The notes under the pieces: generated by a model | What the model was told of the DNA's origin: nothing | Database searches by the model: none | The model's input: only the letters and a program-made list of their open reading frames with translations | Assembly: GCA_018667355.1 (NCBI GenBank) | Contig: JABIVC010000009.1 | Span: 18,665 to 82,664 of the forward strand | DNA length: 64,000 nt | From: Gammaproteobacteria bacterium | GTDB taxonomy: Bacteria; Pseudomonadota; Gammaproteobacteria; GCA-002705445; GCA-002716945 | Direction: 5' to 3' | Part shown: piece after piece, positions 7,696 to 16,495 of the stretch | Position numbering within the stretch: position 1 is the first letter of the stretch | How the letters are laid out: every line of letters begins with the position of its first letter | Translations under genes and position numbers: made by a program

Positions 7696-8139
7696 ATGAA
7701 ATTATCAGCAAAAGGACGATATGCGATTAAGGCTATGATCAATATCGCTTTAAACACATCAAAAGAGCCAAAAACCTTGCTTCAAATAGCAAAACATCAG
7801 GGTATTTCTTTATCATACTTGGAACAATTGTTTGCTCTGTTGAGGAAACATAACCTAGTATCTGGTATACGAGGACCTGGAGGAGGGTATAAGCTTTCAG
7901 ATTTGCCCGAAAATATCACAATAGCACAGATTATCAATGCAATTAACAGTGATACTGTGGTTAACGATGCTTCCGAGAGGAAAGATGAGGTGATTTGGTC
8001 AAAATTCAGTGCTAAACTATGTAACTACTTGGAAACTGTTACACTGGGTAGCTTGATATCGGAGAATAACTCTGTGAATATCACTGATTCAGCTGCAACT
8101 GAAACTGTAGTAGATAAAATTATGGTAAATGGGATTTAG
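7696..8139 (+). CDS. Rrf2-family, IscR-like transcriptional regulator lacking the Fe-S cluster ligand loop
   Basis: MKLSAKGRYA, ISLSYLEQLF and RGPGGGY. Start moved to ATG 7696, which follows an AGGAG SD. Confidence 0.9.
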   Translation: MKLSAKGRYAIKAMINIALNTSKEPKTLLQIAKHQGISLSYLEQLFALLRKHNLVSGIRGPGGGYKLSDLPENITIAQIINAINSDTVVNDASERKDEVIWSKFSAKLCNYLETVTLGSLISENNSVNITDSAATETVVDKIMVNGI

Positions 8140-8889: not shown

Positions 8890-9522
8890 ATGAACAATTA
8901 TAATACTAAGCCAGTCTATTGGGAAAAAGCCAAAAATTATTTATCTAATAATGATAATATTATAAAGAAAATTATACAAAGTGTTGATAATAAACATTTT
9001 TTGACTAGGAACTCAACACCTTTTCAAACATTAGCTAACGCGATTATCGGTCAACAGATATCTGTGGCAGCAGCCTCAAGTGTTCTAAATAAGCTCAAAT
9101 CAAATATTGGCGGCTTGAGTCCTAAGAAATTATACTCAGCTAATAACTCAATGCTAACAAATTCTGGCTTATCTAGGCAAAAAATTGAATATTTAAGCAT
9201 TCTAGCCTCTAAATTTGTTACAAATCCTGATTATTTTTACGGTTTTAAGAATATGTCAGATAAAGACATAATAGATAAATTATGTGAATTAAAGGGGATA
9301 GGCGAATGGACGGCACAAATGTATCTAATCTTTCAGTTGAATAGACCAGATATTTTGCCATTAGCTGATATCGGCTTTGTGAATAGTGCAGTCAAGATAT
9401 ATGATATAAAAGAACCAAAATTACAGAATCTTTTGGAGGTTTCTAAGAAATGGGGTCATTATAAAACAGTCGCTGTATGGTATATTTGGAGAATAATTGA
9501 TCCTGAAGTTGTACAGTATTGA
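8890..9522 (+). CDS. alkA: DNA-3-methyladenine glycosylase II (AlkA-like, HhH-GPD)
   Basis: IIGQQISV, GLSRQKIEY, HhH motif LKGIGEWTAQM and catalytic Asp in LPLADIG. Confidence 0.85.
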   Translation: MNNYNTKPVYWEKAKNYLSNNDNIIKKIIQSVDNKHFLTRNSTPFQTLANAIIGQQISVAAASSVLNKLKSNIGGLSPKKLYSANNSMLTNSGLSRQKIEYLSILASKFVTNPDYFYGFKNMSDKDIIDKLCELKGIGEWTAQMYLIFQLNRPDILPLADIGFVNSAVKIYDIKEPKLQNLLEVSKKWGHYKTVAVWYIWRIIDPEVVQY

Positions 9523-9547
9523 CAAAATATTTTATGAAAAAAATAAT
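9519..9547 (+). promoter_or_regulatory. Possible sigma70 promoter upstream of the sigma-1.1 gene
   Basis: Perfect TTGACA (9519-9524), 17-nt spacer, AATAAT (9542-9547). It overlaps the start of the 46-codon ORF. Confidence 0.4.
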
Positions 9548-9674
9548 TAAAAATATAAAAGTAGCCAAAGAAATTAAGAAAAAAAACAAGAATAAGAAAA
9601 CAATTTTTGATAAATATGGCGATAAGATAGAAGATGGTATTGATTATAAAAAAGATAAACCACCTCATTGGTAA
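9534..9674 (+). CDS. Putative 46-aa Lys-rich small protein, below the ORF-track cutoff
   Basis: Hand translation gives MKKIIKNIKVAKEIKKKNKNKKTIFDKYGDKIEDGIDYKKDKPPHW*. It fills most of the alkA to sigma-1.1 gap; no SD. Confidence 0.45.
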   Translation: MKKIIKNIKVAKEIKKKNKNKKTIFDKYGDKIEDGIDYKKDKPPHW

Positions 9675-9709
9675 TGCCGCTATATAATCTTAGTTTGATG
9701 GACAATATT

Positions 9710-9994
9710 ATGAATAATCAGGAAGAGCTAAAGACATTAATTCGCCAAGGCAAAGAGATTGGTTATATTCTTAACGAAACTCTAGATAAATGTCTTTTAA
9801 GCTTCTCAGCAATTGATAGGAAATATATTATTGAGACATTGGAAGAAATGGAAATACAGATTGTTGACTCTCCAAAAGAATATGATGAGTATAAATACTT
9901 ATCTGGTGAAGAAGCTATAAAGATTTTACAAAGTTTGAGTGATGGGACTCATGAAGCATTTATCAAGCCTCCTAACAAAGACAAAGATGAGTAA
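9710..9994 (+). CDS. Stand-alone RNA polymerase sigma70 region 1.1 domain protein
   Basis: QEELKTLIRQGKEIGYI and IIETLEEMEIQIVDS align with E. coli RpoD QSQLKLLVTRGKEQGYL and IIQMINDMGIQVMEE. No sigma regions 1.2-4 follow. Likely start is ATG 9710. Confidence 0.8.
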   Translation: MNNQEELKTLIRQGKEIGYILNETLDKCLLSFSAIDRKYIIETLEEMEIQIVDSPKEYDEYKYLSGEEAIKILQSLSDGTHEAFIKPPNKDKDE

Positions 9995-10038
9995 TTTAAA
10001 AAACTTATGAAACATGTTAACATACGAAAAAACTTATT

Positions 10039-10350
10039 ATGTTTAAGAAATATTATAATTTAATTGTTCTGTTAATATGCACTGGAGCATTTCCGGTTCA
10101 AGTCGTGTCATCGAGTAATACAGCATTCACTGATCCTGCTATATGCTACTTCCATGATGCTGACTCCAATGATGATAGACAAATTATCAAATGTGATCAT
10201 TGTGATTACTACTATGATATTGATTCTAATCAAAATTCTAAATATATTTTCCCGATTAATGAAGATATCTTGGTCGATAACCTTACACTCAAAAAAAATT
10301 TTTTAAGTTACATACTTTCTCTTAACCCTAGATCCCCTCCATTAGTTTAA
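10039..10350 (+). CDS. DUF2946-like (CruR/CutF-like) leader protein with CxxC and a C-terminal RSPP
   Basis: N-terminal hydrophobic segment, C36-x-x-H39, C52-D-H-C55 and terminal NPRSPPLV*; lies 46 nt upstream of a copper-type TonB receptor. Confidence 0.75.
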   Translation: MFKKYYNLIVLLICTGAFPVQVVSSSNTAFTDPAICYFHDADSNDDRQIIKCDHCDYYYDIDSNQNSKYIFPINEDILVDNLTLKKNFLSYILSLNPRSPPLV

Positions 10351-10396
10351 TTTTATTATCATTAATTAATTTAACTAATATATAGCGGAGGATGCT

Positions 10397-12466
10397 ATGA
10401 AAAATATTTATATTTTCTGTCTAATGACATTAATTATTTCGACAAATATATATGCTGAAGATCTTACTGATATTCAGATAACTGCACCTGAACTTAGTTC
10501 ACAAGATTTAACTAACCAAGCTATTGAGGATATCAATACTAAAAATGCCATTGATGGCGGTGATCTTTTAAGATCTATTAACGGTATAAGTACAATCAGA
10601 AGAGGAGGGCATGGCTTAGATCCTGTTGTAAGAGGACAAAGTGATCAACGTCTTAATTCATTTTTGGATGGCGCTGTAGTTTATGGTGCTTGCTCATCTA
10701 AAATGGACCCTGCCTCTACATATGTGAATATAGAAAACTATGACTCAATAAGTGTCATTAAAGGTTCACAGTCAGTATTATATGGTCCGGGCGGACCGGG
10801 TGGAGTAGTAAGGTATGAAAGAATTACTGAACCTCTAACTCAATATACAAAAGATAGCAACACTAAGTCACAGCCATATAAGCTTAAAATAGGTCAGACA
10901 TTTGACTCTAATGCGGAAGCTAAAACTACAATTGGTGATTTTACATTAGGTTTAGGTCAAGCATATTTTAGAGTTAATGCTTCTTATTCTGAGGCCGGGA
11001 ATTATGAAACAGGTACAGGCTTGAAACCACTTACAGAATATGAAACTAGTAATTATTCAACCATATTAGGAAAAAGACTTGATGATGGTTCTAAATTAGA
11101 ATTTTCATATACTGATAACTCTCAAGAAAATATTGGCTTTGCTGGTTTAGCAATGGATATCGTATACAGTTATACAGATATTTATAATTTAAAATACCAT
11201 CGAGTTACACCGCTTGGCCCTTTTTCTTCAATGAAAGTTGAACTTTTTAATTCTGACATGGATCATTTAATGGATAACTATAAAATGAGAAATGTTAATA
11301 CTATGAGAACACCAGCTGCTTCTGATACATATGGTGGAAGAATCATAGGAGCTACAGATAGGGGGATGAAAATTGGTGTTGATTATGAACATAATACTAG
11401 AGATGCCGAGCAAAATATGGTTATTTCTGGAACAGAAAGACATCTTGCATACCTGTGGCCTGGAGCAGAAATTTCTAAGCTGGGTTTCTTTATAGAAAAA
11501 GATAATAAAATGTCAGATCTAACTACAATGTCATATGGTTTAAGATTTGATAGGGTAGAGACAGATGCAACTAGGGCTGCTGTTGATCCTGGTACTGCAC
11601 ATATGGCTCAAGTAACAGCCAATAGTTTGTATACAGCTCATTATGCTGGAACTGTCACAGCAGGTAAAAGAGATTTTAACAATTTTAGTGGGTTCTTGAG
11701 ATTTAAAAAAGATTATGGCCCAATGTCTAGTGCTTATATCTCTCTAAGCAGGAATGAAAGAACGCCTGATGCAACAGAGCTATTCAATGCTAAAACTTCT
11801 ATGGCAATGGGTGGAAAATATAGACTCAGACATATTGGTAATCCAAATATCAATTCTGAGGTACACACTACATTAGAGTTAGGTTTTGAAAATATGATTA
11901 TGGGTAGTCATGTCAATGGATCTTTATATCTTAATGATGTTAGTGATTATATTACAACATACAGAGCTTCTGATGGAACATATGATAATACCGTTAACGA
12001 TGCAAGAATTTATAAGAATGTAGATGCTACTATTTGGGGGTATGAACTTACTGTTAAAAAAGATCTTACCTCTAATGTAAAAACCATATTTAATATAAAT
12101 TATACTCATGGAGATGACGATACACAAAATAGACCATTAGCTCAAATAATGCCTTTATCTGGTGATATTTCATTAGAATATCAGACAAGTTCCGTCAACT
12201 ATGGTTTAAGAGCTAATTTTGCCGATACTCAAGACCGTTTTGATTCAAGAGTCCTTGATAGCGGTAGAACTGGGGGTTATACCGTTTATGATCTATATGC
12301 AGGTTTTGAACCAACTCCAAATATTAGATTTACAATGGGTATAAGTAATTTAACTGATAAAAGATATGCTACTCATTTGAATAGTTCTAACTCTCTAGAT
12401 GCAACAGCTGACCGTGTTGATGAACCAGGAAGAAGTTTCTGGGGATCATTAATTTATGATTTCTAG
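10397..12466 (+). CDS. oprC: TonB-dependent copper receptor (OprC-like)
   Basis: Signal peptide, RRGGHGLDPVVRG, CxxxM (GACSSKMDP), HxM (DHLMDNY), EPGRSFW and terminal Phe. Confidence 0.85.
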   Translation: MKNIYIFCLMTLIISTNIYAEDLTDIQITAPELSSQDLTNQAIEDINTKNAIDGGDLLRSINGISTIRRGGHGLDPVVRGQSDQRLNSFLDGAVVYGACSSKMDPASTYVNIENYDSISVIKGSQSVLYGPGGPGGVVRYERITEPLTQYTKDSNTKSQPYKLKIGQTFDSNAEAKTTIGDFTLGLGQAYFRVNASYSEAGNYETGTGLKPLTEYETSNYSTILGKRLDDGSKLEFSYTDNSQENIGFAGLAMDIVYSYTDIYNLKYHRVTPLGPFSSMKVELFNSDMDHLMDNYKMRNVNTMRTPAASDTYGGRIIGATDRGMKIGVDYEHNTRDAEQNMVISGTERHLAYLWPGAEISKLGFFIEKDNKMSDLTTMSYGLRFDRVETDATRAAVDPGTAHMAQVTANSLYTAHYAGTVTAGKRDFNNFSGFLRFKKDYGPMSSAYISLSRNERTPDATELFNAKTSMAMGGKYRLRHIGNPNINSEVHTTLELGFENMIMGSHVNGSLYLNDVSDYITTYRASDGTYDNTVNDARIYKNVDATIWGYELTVKKDLTSNVKTIFNINYTHGDDDTQNRPLAQIMPLSGDISLEYQTSSVNYGLRANFADTQDRFDSRVLDSGRTGGYTVYDLYAGFEPTPNIRFTMGISNLTDKRYATHLNSSNSLDATADRVDEPGRSFWGSLIYDF

Positions 12467-12476
12467 TTGACATATT

Positions 12477-12521
12477 ACCCGTCCCTACAGCACTCCATTA
12501 AAGGGGCGGGTGATTTATTTT
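12477..12521 (+). terminator. Probable intrinsic terminator after the TonB receptor
   Basis: 10-bp GC-rich stem ACCCGTCCCT/AGGGGCGGGT with one G-U pair and a 15-nt loop, then GATTTATTTT. Confidence 0.55.
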
Positions 12522-12656
12522 CCTAAGATTAGAAATTTTTTCATTTATTTATTTGAACACTATAATGACTCAAAATATTTGAATATTAACTATCTCTAAC
12601 TTGTTTTCAATAATATATGTATATAAAATAATTTATTACTTATTAGGAGTATAGGG

Positions 12657-13655
12657 ATGGATCCATTATCACAAGGTGTTGTTGGCGTAGTTGCTGCTCA
12701 GCAAACTGCAGATCGCAAACATCTCTTAATTGCTAGTCTTTTAGGATTCTTTGCAGGGATGTCTGCTGATTTAGATATATTCATTAAGTCTTCTCAAGAC
12801 CCATTATTCTCGTTAGAGTTTCATAGGCAATTTACGCATTCAATATTTTTTATGCCATTTGGCGGATTAATATGTGCATTATTTTTTTATAATCTCTTTT
12901 TAAAAAATAAAGATATATCATTTAAACAAACTTATATTTACTCAACACTGGGTTATGCTACTCATGGCCTACTTGATGCATGTACAACTTATGGCACTCA
13001 GTTATTTTGGCCATTCACCAATGATAGGATTGCCTGGAATACAATTTCTATTATTGATCCATTATTTACTTTACCTATCCTTTTCTTAGTTGTATTTTCA
13101 GTTTATAAAAATAGCAAAAAATATTCATATATTGCTTTGTCATGGATAATAATATATACATCTTTAGGTTTTATTCAAAATTACAGGGCTGAAGAGATAG
13201 GGAGAGAGCTTGCAGAATCACGTGGGCATAAAATAATAAATATTGAAGCAAAACCAAGTTTTGCAAATATAATTGTTTGGAAGACTATATATACAACTCA
13301 AACACATTATCATATAGATGCAGCTAGAGTAGGATTTAATACTAGAATAATAGAAGGAGTGAAGATAGAAAAATTTAACATAAAAAAATCATTCCCCTGG
13401 CTCGACTTAGAATCTCAACAAGCGAAAGACATAGAAAGGTTTAGATGGTTTTCAAATGGATATATTGCTACTTCTAGTATTAATCCAAATCAAATAATTG
13501 ATATTCGTTATTCAATGTTGCCGAATGAAGGACATGGTTTATGGGGTATACAACTAAATCCAGAAGCAGAAAAAGATGCTTATATAAAAAGAATTTCTAA
13601 TAGACGTAGTGATATGTCCACATATATTAAATTATGGAAGATGATAGTAGACTAA
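12657..13655 (+). CDS. Membrane-bound metal-dependent hydrolase (YdjM/DUF457-like)
   Basis: MDPLSQ, DLD, HRQFTHS, HGLLDACT and IIDP motifs with hydrophobic segments. Confidence 0.85.
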   Translation: MDPLSQGVVGVVAAQQTADRKHLLIASLLGFFAGMSADLDIFIKSSQDPLFSLEFHRQFTHSIFFMPFGGLICALFFYNLFLKNKDISFKQTYIYSTLGYATHGLLDACTTYGTQLFWPFTNDRIAWNTISIIDPLFTLPILFLVVFSVYKNSKKYSYIALSWIIIYTSLGFIQNYRAEEIGRELAESRGHKIINIEAKPSFANIIVWKTIYTTQTHYHIDAARVGFNTRIIEGVKIEKFNIKKSFPWLDLESQQAKDIERFRWFSNGYIATSSINPNQIIDIRYSMLPNEGHGLWGIQLNPEAEKDAYIKRISNRRSDMSTYIKLWKMIVD

Positions 13656-13781
13656 TATATCTATGATTTAATTATCTCCTATGGAGAAACTGAATTAATT
13701 ACTTCAGGATTCAACTTTATAATGTTATACCTATTGATATAAATCATTTAAATCATATAGTTAAGATGATAGATTGCATAT

Positions 13782-14471
13782 ATGCGTTATAAAATTTTAT
13801 TTCTTTTAACCATCTGCTGTTTTAACCCATCCTATTTATATTCTGGTGGTAAGACTACTGCGGAATCAGTTAATTCAAAAAACATTCAATATACTATTGG
13901 TTATATGTCAGAGTATTGGATAAGAGGGTCTTTTCAAGCTGCTTCTGTTCTACATGCCAATGTTTCTTATACTACTGGCCCAGTTTATTTGAGTGCTGGT
14001 TATGCAGATTTAAGAGATAGAAAGGGCGGAGCATCTTATAATGAAGGAGAGGCATTCGTAAGTCTATATGGAAGTTATAATTTTAAATTATATGAAATAC
14101 CATCATACATAGGACTTGCAGCATATAGATATACCGATGGAATTGATCAGCATTATAATGAGGTCAGTATTGGTGCTGATCTAAGTCTATTTTCTGTTGA
14201 TGCTGTTATTCTAGGTGATTATGATACGTCTCCAAGCTCAGATTATTGGCATTTTCAGGTCACAGTACCCTTGGGTCCAGTCAATTATACTTATGGTACA
14301 TATTCTGGTGCATGGCAATATGTTGTTCATGAAGTATCAACAGGGTTTGATATCAATGATATAAATTTTGGTGTAAAACTAGGCATGAATAATGACAATG
14401 CGATGGGTACATCTGCCAATTCAAATCAGGATACAACATACGGTGTACTCTCTATTAGCTATAGCTTTTAG
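13782..14471 (+). CDS. Putative outer-membrane beta-barrel, TorF/Gcw_chp-like porin
   Basis: Signal peptide, SEYWIRG resembling the SDY-x-FRG TorF motif, alternating aromatic strands and terminal ISYSF. Confidence 0.6.
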   Translation: MRYKILFLLTICCFNPSYLYSGGKTTAESVNSKNIQYTIGYMSEYWIRGSFQAASVLHANVSYTTGPVYLSAGYADLRDRKGGASYNEGEAFVSLYGSYNFKLYEIPSYIGLAAYRYTDGIDQHYNEVSIGADLSLFSVDAVILGDYDTSPSSDYWHFQVTVPLGPVNYTYGTYSGAWQYVVHEVSTGFDINDINFGVKLGMNNDNAMGTSANSNQDTTYGVLSISYSF

Positions 14472-14478
14472 AGATAGT

Positions 14479-14598
14479 ATGATTGAAAAGTATAAATCAA
14501 TTAAAACTTTGGCTTTAGAAACAATTAAATTAATATTAATAGGAATATCCATGATTTCTTTTGCCATTTATATATTATTTAATATATTTTATGATTGA
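14479..14598 (+). CDS. Possible 39-aa single-pass membrane peptide
   Basis: MIEKYKSIKTLALETIKLILIGISMISFAIYILFNIFYD*, starting 7 nt after the porin stop; could be a chance ORF in AT-rich DNA. Confidence 0.3.
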   Translation: MIEKYKSIKTLALETIKLILIGISMISFAIYILFNIFYD

Positions 14599-14741
14599 AA
14601 AATTTATTAAGACTGAGTGTGGTTTATCTGAGTATAAAAGATTAAAAATACTCTCTGAAGATAGAGTACTTTTTAAAATCAGACTATACGTTTTCGTTAT
14701 AATAGCGATTATGAGAGATTTATTTAAATAGTTAGATAGAT

Positions 14742-15323
14742 CTAATTATTTTTTTTCTGCATCTTCTTAAACTTTTCTATAGCTGCTTTTCTTTTTATAT
14801 CACCATTTTTATCAAGCATGCTGCTAATATCTGAATTATTATCTACCACTGATTTGAGGTTAGAACATACAAGACCTATTTCAAATGGAGATAGAGATTT
14901 CATGTTCAAGACTAAATAATAATTTAGACCATGCTCCCAATGCTTTAGAAATCCATTTTCTATATATTTTATTTCAACATCATATTTTTCGGCTATAATC
15001 TTAAATGCATTTCTTTTAGTCTTTTCATCAAATATTTCTGTCCATACATTATTGATTACCATTGACATGACAAGATTATCAGTCACTCTTACATCTTTAG
15101 TTAATCCAAAAGCTTTATCTAAAGATCTAGATTTATTTCTAAGCATAATAGATGCATTGTTACACCATTCACTTAATTCTTCTGGAATAAGTTTAGGGAC
15201 AGCATTATAAACATGCATAATTTCAAAAAGTTCTATAATATCCTCGTTTCTTATTTGAGTACGAGATAATATTTTTTTAATTCGTAGTTCATGTAATTGC
15301 CATGAAATATTTTCTGTTGTCAT
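14742..15323 (-). CDS. Hypothetical protein, possibly a mobile-element-derived DNA-binding protein
   Basis: 193-aa ORF with no competing long ORF. The SLDKAFGL and AFKIIAEKYDV segments are reminiscent of phage/island HTH proteins. Confidence 0.6.
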   Translation of the reverse strand: MTTENISWQLHELRIKKILSRTQIRNEDIIELFEIMHVYNAVPKLIPEELSEWCNNASIMLRNKSRSLDKAFGLTKDVRVTDNLVMSMVINNVWTEIFDEKTKRNAFKIIAEKYDVEIKYIENGFLKHWEHGLNYYLVLNMKSLSPFEIGLVCSNLKSVVDNNSDISSMLDKNGDIKRKAAIEKFKKMQKKNN

Positions 15324-15437
15324 TATTACTCTCTTATTTATGGGTTAACTTTACCATCAGATACTCATTAAATACTACATATTTATCGCTAGTTATGTTA
15401 ATTTTAGGTTATAGAAATAAAGAGGGGAGTGAAGATA

Positions 15438-16076
15438 ATGAGAAATATACTTTTATTTTTGACGCTAGGGTTTACTTCGATTGCATTCGCAGGTGGCCAT
15501 GGTAAAGGTCTGCCGAATGATTCAACTCATGGATCACATGGCAAATATAGTTTAACTTATGAAATTCTAGATAATGATTATGATAGCGGTGTGAACACGA
15601 TAGTAGGAGCAACCATAGATGAAGATGATAATGGCTATGGTATAGTCTTGGGTTATGACCTGGGAAATAATCTTACGCTAGAAGCAGCATATAGAGATTT
15701 TGGCCAAGCTTCATTAAGCGGAGCATCTGGAAATACTTTCAAATATGGAGGCGTTTCTTACACATTTGATGCAACAGCTGTTGTTTCGGTTGAGGCAGAT
15801 ACTCTAGCATTAGGTCTGAAAAAATCGTTTAATCTTGGGGACAATCTTTCTGTTTTTGCTAGAGCAGGTATTCATCGCTATGAATCTACTCTTGGAGTAA
15901 CAGCGGCGACAGCATCTGCTGACACTAGCAACAAGGACGAAGAAATTTATTATGGAGTAGGAGCATCATATTCAATGGGTAATATACATCTTAATATAGC
16001 TCATGATACTTATGACATTGATTATGGAGATATAGATGCTACAGGTATATCTTTAAGTTATAACTTAGCTTTTTAA
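15438..16076 (+). CDS. Small outer-membrane beta-barrel protein (OmpA transmembrane-domain-like)
   Basis: Signal MRNILLFLTLGFTSIAFA, LGYD-x-x-x-x-LTLEAAYRDFG, YYGVGASY and terminal SYNLAF; GGGGAG SD upstream. Confidence 0.8.
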   Translation: MRNILLFLTLGFTSIAFAGGHGKGLPNDSTHGSHGKYSLTYEILDNDYDSGVNTIVGATIDEDDNGYGIVLGYDLGNNLTLEAAYRDFGQASLSGASGNTFKYGGVSYTFDATAVVSVEADTLALGLKKSFNLGDNLSVFARAGIHRYESTLGVTAATASADTSNKDEEIYYGVGASYSMGNIHLNIAHDTYDIDYGDIDATGISLSYNLAF

Positions 16077-16097
16077 ATAGTTAAGATTTATTAATAT

Positions 16098-16120
16098 ATG
16101 GCCTAGATTTTCTGGGCCAT
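16098..16120. terminator. Hairpin between the convergent OMP gene and ssrA, possibly a bidirectional terminator
   Basis: ATGGCCTAGA-ttt-TCTGGGCCAT, a 10-bp stem with one G-U pair; no clear U tract. Confidence 0.4.
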
Positions 16121-16150
16121 GTTCATGAGGTAGGTATCAATTTTACTTCA

Positions 16151-16495
16151 GTGGAGACGGCGGGAATCGAACCCGCGTCCGAGAGCACTCAGCCCTTAGT
16201 ACTACATGTTTAGTTTATCTTTAATTTAATCATTAAGCTGACGATAAACAATCTACTTAATAACTGTCTTGTTTAATTTAACAGTACAATAACAAGCACA
16301 TGTACTGCGGTCTTATCATTATGACTTCAGTAAAGAGCATATAAGCCTACTCTTAGTGAAGCTAGCGGCAGTTAGGCTGCTAGGGCTAAAGGTTTATTTT
16401 CAGCGTTTATAGTTTATCAGCAGTTTAACGAGTTACCGAAAAGCTCGACATGCACTTCAGGAATTGCAACCCCACGTCGAAGCCAGGTCGTCCCC
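16151..16495 (-). ncRNA. ssrA: tmRNA, one-piece; predicted tag (A)AENKPLALAA
   Basis: The minus strand starts GGGGACG and ends with GGGTTCGATTCCC T-arm and CGTCTCC-A, with a G3-U70 pair. Tag ORF GCT GAA AAT AAA CCT TTA GCC CTA GCA GCC TAA lies at 16404-16372 after ATAAAC. CCA is not fully encoded. Confidence 0.96.

Follow-up and report, generated by a model that had tools for sequence, protein, structure and literature searches.

The window analysed here, a 64,000-nucleotide stretch of gammaproteobacterial DNA, encodes a free-standing 94-residue protein made of two parts: an N-terminal domain whose likeness to region 1.1 of sigma70 is, by sequence comparison, well above chance, and a C-terminal module that is nearly invariant within the protein's own family. 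Judged from its relatives, the gene is functional, strongly constrained and common in one marine lineage. We tentatively read its product as an RNA polymerase (RNAP)-associated factor anchored by the tail, a reading to which we give somewhat less than an even chance. What is already known is the annotation at the level of the domain; the new questions concern what the protein does, what it binds and how much its tail matters.

The features discussed below are collected in Table 1. The start of the gene at position 9710 matches the aligned start of most homologues (MDNKEELK...); beyond the alternative ATG listed in the table, the further in-frame upstream start is a TTG at 9668.

Table 1. Features of the sigma-1.1-like gene and its surroundings (window coordinates, except in the last row, where the contig is named).
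Feature	Position	Strand	Basis or remark
Sigma-1.1-like protein CDS	9710..9994	+	ATG to TAA, 94 aa, stop included; ORF list and family alignments A1/A3
Alternative in-frame ATG	9698..9709	+	Adds MDNI, giving 98 aa; homologue P0002 starts MENIMNNQ
Sigma70 region-1.1-like N-domain, residues 2-57	9713..9880	+	Pfam PF03979, PDB sequence matches, AlphaFold, Foldseek
Near-invariant family-specific module, residues 58-86, YDEYKYLSGEEAIKILQSLSDGTHEAFIK	9881..9967	+	A1/A3 columns, dN/dS, predicted helix 66-78
Variable charged C-terminal end, residues 87-94	9968..9991	+	Alignment A3; predicted disordered, pLDDT 45-48
HhH-GPD DNA glycosylase gene	8890..9522	+	Pfam PF00730; upstream context
46-aa lysine-rich small ORF, MKKIIKNIK...FDKYGDKIEDGIDYKKDKPPHW	9534..9674	+	Between glycosylase and sigma-1.1-like gene
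Variable island between gene and tmRNA	9995-16148		Locus comparison
103-aa secreted-looking ORF	10039-10350		In island
TonB-dependent receptor	10397-12466		In island
YdjM-family gene	12657-13655		In island
tmRNA gene	16149-16495	-	
Type-B transmembrane small ORF	L152 7844-7969; L017 133-258; L149 about 7870-7970		

The first-pass annotation of this DNA had aligned about 55 residues with RpoD region 1.1 and had proposed a free-standing protein bearing a genuine region-1.1 domain, and our searches bear out both points. The Pfam model PF03979 (Sigma70_r1_1) matches residues 2-64 significantly, with 31.4 bits (E 1.8e-7) against a curated gathering score of 22.5 bits, and the same model is matched by 53 of the 57 family members. 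The top NCBIfam match of the protein is RpoD PRK05658, at positions 22-88. Searches of PDB sequences, with the protein itself (phmmer) as with the family profile, returned RpoD and SigA chains only, aligned at their N-termini each time; T. maritima sigma 1.1 (2k6x) was found at E 4.8e-4 and E. coli sigma70 at E 3e-3. In a profile-profile comparison (hhalign), the family aligned with 55 RpoD N-termini at a probability of 95.9% (E 5e-9). These sequence-level matches place the likeness far above chance level. Six residues of the sigma-like half (G14, G18, D36, Y39, I49 and Q50) are invariant across all subtypes in alignment A3. The protein stops at residue 94 and has no Pfam match to regions r1_2, r2, r3 or r4; the clean stop after a non-sigma tail described in the first-pass annotation is likewise confirmed, with the tail measuring about 30-37 residues here.

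Structure prediction agrees with the sequence matches. In two AlphaFold runs of the single chain, mean pLDDT was 86-87, and it reached 93-96 across residues 11-60. The predicted N-domain consists of a helix at residues 3-17, a strand at 19-21, two further helices at 22-28 and 34-46 and a strand at 50-52, and a separate helix is predicted in the tail at residues 66-78. The best PDB fold matches found by Foldseek are sigma factors (9a58_A, 8to1_L and 4llg_F), and B. subtilis sigma 1.1 (5mww) superposes with a TM score of 0.55 and an rmsd of 2.9 A over 58 columns; the E-values of these matches are weak (0.09-0.8), which is normal at this small domain size. The protein is thereby predicted to adopt the compact three-helix fold of sigma region 1.1.

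Compared with region 1.1 of group-1 sigma factors (E. coli sigma70 ~1-95; T. maritima 2K6X; B. subtilis SigA 5MWW), the family is homologous over ~57-64 residues and shares both the GK-x-x-GY, D-x-x-Y/I and I-Q/V signature and, by prediction, the helix-strand-helix-helix-strand core. However, it departs from region 1.1 in several respects: (I) the family protein is detached from regions 1.2-4, (II) it is without the long acidic linker and is far less acidic, (III) its H2-H3 loop is shorter by 2-4 residues, and (IV) it carries an invariant C-terminal module that is unique to the family.

Analysis of the family alignments reveals that this C-terminal module is, at the level of sequence, the most conserved portion of the protein. 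The first-pass annotation was right to call the tail non-sigma, since it has no sigma homology, but overlooked its standing as the most conserved part. Among type-A members, the subtype of the window, residues 58-86 are almost identical, whereas the sigma-like half falls to ~45% identity (alignment A1). Tail omega is at most 0.03 at pS 0.5-0.9, with synonymous sites saturated, and it is therefore the protein, not the DNA, that is constrained. Ten tail residues (D59, E60, K62, Y63, G66, L73, D78, G79, A83 and F84) are invariant across subtypes (A3). AlphaFold models residues 61-80 at pLDDT 82-90, which suggests that the tail packs or makes a defined element, unlike a floppy linker. The tail has no match in Pfam, NCBIfam or the PDB; in an exhaustive HMM search across 1.84 billion representatives at 50% identity, its one match outside the family was to a spurious repeat protein. 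In our view, the tail is probably what decides the protein's role.

By eye, a helix of RpoD just ahead of region 1.2 looks similar to the tail helix (EQEAVEVLSNL versus GEEAIKILQSL), and the greedy hhalign alignment passes through the tail at low confidence. An equivalence of the two is not supported: taken by itself, the tail scores 8.6 against 7.2 +/- 1.4 for shuffles, a value that 27 of the 200 shuffled column sets also reach. We note a separate 79-residue ORF, P0088 (492-731 on the 756-bp contig L016), in which the invariant tail is joined to an unrelated N-terminus; it sits among short overlapping ORFs with a phage-like look, on a contig too short to judge.

The family itself is large and uniform in length. 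An initial search of marine metagenomes and metagenome-assembled genomes (MAGs) returned 70 relatives (54-99% identity), with few exceptions 93-99 residues long. The HMM search described above gave 27 matches among its 1.84 billion representatives, all short proteins or fragments and none a sigma factor; a further search, started from the family's most divergent members, yielded at least 536 clusters at 90% identity; the best 120 of these 536 clusters are all of 89-101 residues, on contigs that reach 1.1 Mb. The loci bearing family genes have 30-33% GC and belong to gammaproteobacterial MAGs, conceivably of SAR86-like lineages. Three subtypes can be told apart by their tails: type A (YDEYKYLSGEEAIKILQSLSDGxHEAF), the very abundant type B (...DYDEYKYMTGEEAIEFLQSLSDGKTKAFVKDE) and the smaller type C (...DYDELKYLSGKDAIDFLQNLTDGKYSAF). 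Pairwise Nei-Gojobori estimates over eight distinct coding sequences give a whole-gene omega of 0.04-0.14 with synonymous sites near saturation, and an N-domain omega of ~0.07-0.4, indicating purifying selection on this half also.

Several members (P0308, P0294 and MDG2159702.1, the last of which shares a 90% cluster with the window protein) are labelled at NCBI as 'RNA polymerase sigma factor region1.1 domain-containing protein'. This PGAP label reflects the Pfam domain alone and gives no function, partner or conserved tail. Our literature search on free-standing or trans-acting region 1.1 proteins found no relevant paper, in line with the earlier statement that no characterised example was known. 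One further sequence, P0090 (159 residues), has a Sigma70_r2-like N-terminus fused at NQIKNLIRK to the exact sigma-1.1-like domain of the L014 type; it is probably an assembly chimera, and possibly a real recombinant.

The first-pass annotation had counted about 21 acidic and 12 basic residues, numbers that prove exact, and had taken an acidic DNA mimic as its premise. This premise is poorly conserved in the family, in which the charge is weak and variable: the net N-domain charge is -5 in the window protein and has a family mean of -2.6 (range -8 to +2), against a mean of -7.4 in RpoD 1.1 cores (n=49), where the subsequent linker adds -9.5. The acidic linker is absent from the sigma-1.1-like family. 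Judged from these computed charges, the family does not share the strongly negative character of region 1.1, and the argument from acidic DNA mimicry is weakened because the N-domain is only mildly acidic.

In sigma70, region 1.1 lies in the primary channel, where it has to shift to let DNA in (PMC2613000), and sigma release requires it (PMC12478191). Small acidic proteins of the SutA type bind RNAP close to the main channel and so influence initiation (bioRxiv 10.1101/423384). The protein described here has two parts, residues ~2-57 being an old, diverged paralogue of region 1.1 and residues 58-86 the family-specific module. The sigma-1.1-like half may contact the same RNAP surfaces as sigma70 1.1, that is, the main DNA channel bounded by the beta lobe and the beta-prime clamp, while the invariant tail would dock on a highly conserved partner surface and so substitute for the lost covalent tether to sigma region 1.2 and domain 2. 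The effect could be to tune DNA entry and open-complex formation or, alternatively, to hold core or alternative-sigma holoenzymes off non-promoter DNA. A replacement anchor seated on a very conserved surface should itself be invariant, as the tail is, and it is on this account that we favour an RNAP-associated factor. That the family constitutes a new class of transcription factor, a separately encoded sigma-1.1 module with its own C-terminal anchor to RNAP, we regard as doubtful though possible; if true, it would bring 1.1-type channel gating to core or alternative-sigma holoenzymes in abundant, streamlined heterotrophs of the surface ocean.

Other small proteins that act on RNAP invite comparison. 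The delta subunit of B. subtilis (RpoE) and the phage DNA-channel binders T7 Gp2 and Ocr are small and acidic and either occupy the surfaces of RNAP that bind nucleic acid or compete for them; their folds are unrelated to the sigma-1.1-like family. SutA of P. aeruginosa resembles the family in being small, acidic, sigma-independent and gammaproteobacterial and in possessing a conserved helix (bioRxiv 10.1101/423384). SutA binds the beta1 domain of RNAP, and its acidic part has been proposed to lie near the main channel in a sigma-1.1-like manner (bioRxiv 10.1101/423384). We treat SutA as a functional analogy to the proposed mechanism, RNAP binding having been shown for SutA and being hypothetical here. 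The two are not homologous, and SutA is largely disordered, whereas the present protein is predicted to be a folded sigma-1.1 domain with a tail.

Certain observations argue against an RNAP-associated factor. The mild and poorly conserved charge of the N-domain, together with the missing acidic linker, weakens it, and the genomic neighbourhoods show no link to transcription. In addition, the strongest constraint falls on the part without sigma homology, and the function may therefore be unconnected to the role of sigma 1.1. The main rival reading follows from the mild, variable charge, the constraint on the tail and the occurrence of Sigma70_r1_1 in proteins that are not sigma factors: the protein would be an adaptor centred on its tail, with the 29-residue module binding another conserved partner or ligand and the sigma-1.1 fold serving as a reused scaffold. 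Conservation of the tail far exceeds that of the sigma-like half, the P0088 tail stands on a different N-terminus, and no transcription gene lies in the neighbourhoods, all of which would suit such an adaptor. So would the domain's use in P0094 and P0096, each of which has two copies of Sigma70_r1_1 outside any sigma factor. P0094 (726 residues) carries KOW motifs and an N-terminal region that matches the Agrobacterium jumbo phage Atu_ph07; P0096 (259 residues) has its two copies in tandem, followed by a C-terminal region of unknown type. Both differ from the family in their host organisms, in their multi-domain or repeated architecture and in being without the YDEYKY...SDG...AF tail. A mere scaffold, however, is harder to reconcile with the purifying selection on the N-domain (omega ~0.07-0.4) and with retention of the sigma 1.1 signature residues listed above, and none of the sequence or structure searches suggests another partner. 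We consider the adaptor possible, if on the unlikely side.

Alternatively, the protein may act in trans on sigma itself, binding domain 2 or 4 of RpoD or of an alternative sigma factor and thereby inactivating it or altering sigma competition. Region 1.1 homology is compatible with such an anti-sigma-like role, as is the masking of DNA-binding determinants by region 1.1 in free sigma70. Region 1.1 added in trans reportedly inhibits, in 1993 work attributed to Dombroski. The part of PMC2613000 that recounts work of Dombroski et al. states that sigma70 minus region 1.1 binds DNA and that the full-length protein does not. Against this reading, acidity is weak and variable in the family, and the gene has no linkage to sigma genes, the flanks of 120 rpoD loci and the window both being negative. 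Direct contact between region 1.1 and sigma4 as the mechanism of autoinhibition is, moreover, a matter of debate. We hold an anti-sigma-like factor to be improbable.

The neighbourhood of the gene differs among the subtypes. At type-A loci, the upstream order is conserved and reads mnmA, isocitrate lyase, isocitrate dehydrogenase, infA, IscR, IscU, a gene for a YgaP-like membrane protein and the HhH-GPD glycosylase, followed by the gene; the glycosylase-to-gene gap is 14-15 nt in L005 and L014, and one or two small ORFs intervene elsewhere. The 46-residue ORF of Table 1 is kept in the window, L001, L010, L011/L012 and L013, and is missing at this place in L005 and L014. Gene calls include it on 90 contigs, and Pfam gives no match; its connection with the sigma-1.1-like gene may be functional or merely positional. 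A promoter-like site at 9519-9547 overlaps the start of this ORF in an AT-rich stretch, and we place no reliance on it. In L001, a downstream pair of 46- and 94-residue genes that we considered as a second copy turned out to encode unrelated membrane peptides. Downstream, type-A loci are variable and end at the tmRNA (ssrA) gene, which lies 15 nt from the gene in L005-L008, ~3.2 kb away in L014 and ~6.1 kb away in the window. This stretch resembles a typical ssrA-flanking insertion hotspot; in the window it also holds beta-barrel-like ORFs.

At type-B loci, the gene stands between a 4HBT thioesterase gene and ppc, or else precedes a His_Phos_1 gene, and HhH-GPD is ~7 kb off or absent; at type-C loci, the gene follows a cold-shock-like gene. 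Directly upstream of the type-B gene we observe a conserved small ORF of ~33-41 residues with a single transmembrane segment (MKDYKVIYLIVIVSILAFLSVYYMD...), which overlaps the sigma-1.1-like gene by 4 nt in L017. No transcription gene was found near the family gene in type A, B or C neighbourhoods; there being no universal neighbour either, the context gives no functional hint.

These arrangements bear on a further reading, in which the protein would be a partner or inhibitor of the HhH-GPD glycosylase, mimicking DNA as Ugi does on uracil-DNA glycosylase. The gene is the downstream neighbour of the glycosylase at every type-A locus, and the 14-15 nt gap in L005 and L014 suggests co-transcription. 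However, the adjacency is gone in types B and C, one or two small ORFs separate the genes in many type-A genomes, and among close type-A relatives the adjacency is uninformative because the entire upstream region is syntenic. A glycosylase partner is consequently very improbable. We also discarded a phage origin, including a phage-encoded inhibitor: IMG/VR, GenBank phages and BFVD structures contain no relatives, and the neighbours are housekeeping genes.

A different possibility is that the RpoD of this lineage lost region 1.1, which would now be a separate polypeptide of a split sigma factor. The window contains no rpoD-like sequence. With a codon-biased DNA pattern built on the ARTIRIPVHMIETINKLNR motif, we retrieved 120 AT-rich gammaproteobacterial rpoD loci, in which the rpoD ORFs uncut by contig ends are of ~600-670 residues with region 1.1 intact, except for four with an in-frame stop (L092, L114, L126 and L131). 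Three of these exceptions (L092, L126 and L131) are 96-99.8% identical to full-length rpoD genes, while the best likeness of L114 (22% GC) to the others is ~75%. By tetranucleotide composition, other family-bearing loci are closest to the window (r = 0.986-0.992) and the G4 group of rpoD loci comes next (r = 0.97-0.98); for type-B loci, the best-matching rpoD group is G3 (r = 0.986-0.989). Both groups possess region 1.1, and the G4 RpoD relatives listed, at least 120 in number, all combine PF03979 with r1_2, ner, r2, r3 and r4. A side observation is that G4 rpoD (L115, L124, L139, L140 and L148) lies outside the usual rpsU-dnaG-rpoD operon, between msrA and an opposite-strand ahpC-tkt-gap cluster.

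An intact rpoD elsewhere in the genome had been named earlier as something to confirm, and here the outcome is divided: region 1.1 is kept in the composition-matched G4 and G3 groups, but nucleotide and protein overlap with the 120 rpoD loci found no contig shared by rpoD and a family gene, and no family member occurs in the flanks of those loci. On the basis of composition, an ordinary RpoD that retains region 1.1 is most probably present as well in the genomes that bear the gene. Against each RpoD group, the family profile reaches 11-21 bits and favours none, and we therefore regard the family as an old paralogue, not a recent duplicate. Retention of region 1.1 in RpoD, barring the four exceptions above, and the equal distance of the family from all RpoD groups leave a split sigma factor highly improbable; with region 1.1 still in RpoD, the protein would be additional to sigma rather than a part of it. 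Finally, a decaying rpoD 5' fragment or spurious ORF, which the first-pass annotation would have recognised by a dN/dS near 1 and restriction to single strains, has a negligible probability given the whole-gene omega of 0.04-0.14, the steady length, the at least 536 clusters and the confident AlphaFold model.

In sum, an RNAP-associated factor anchored by its tail is the reading that we tentatively prefer for this protein. Of all parts of the housekeeping sigma factor, region 1.1 is understood least; besides gating the entry of DNA, it influences promoter-specific kinetics as well as sigma release, and phages target it. A free copy under strong purifying selection in very abundant, genome-streamlined marine bacteria would amount to a natural experiment on region 1.1 in trans, in which the 29-residue tail provides a handle for identifying the partner. 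If that partner is RNAP, the family would represent a new type of polymerase-binding regulator; otherwise, it would be a case of the sigma-1.1 fold repurposed.
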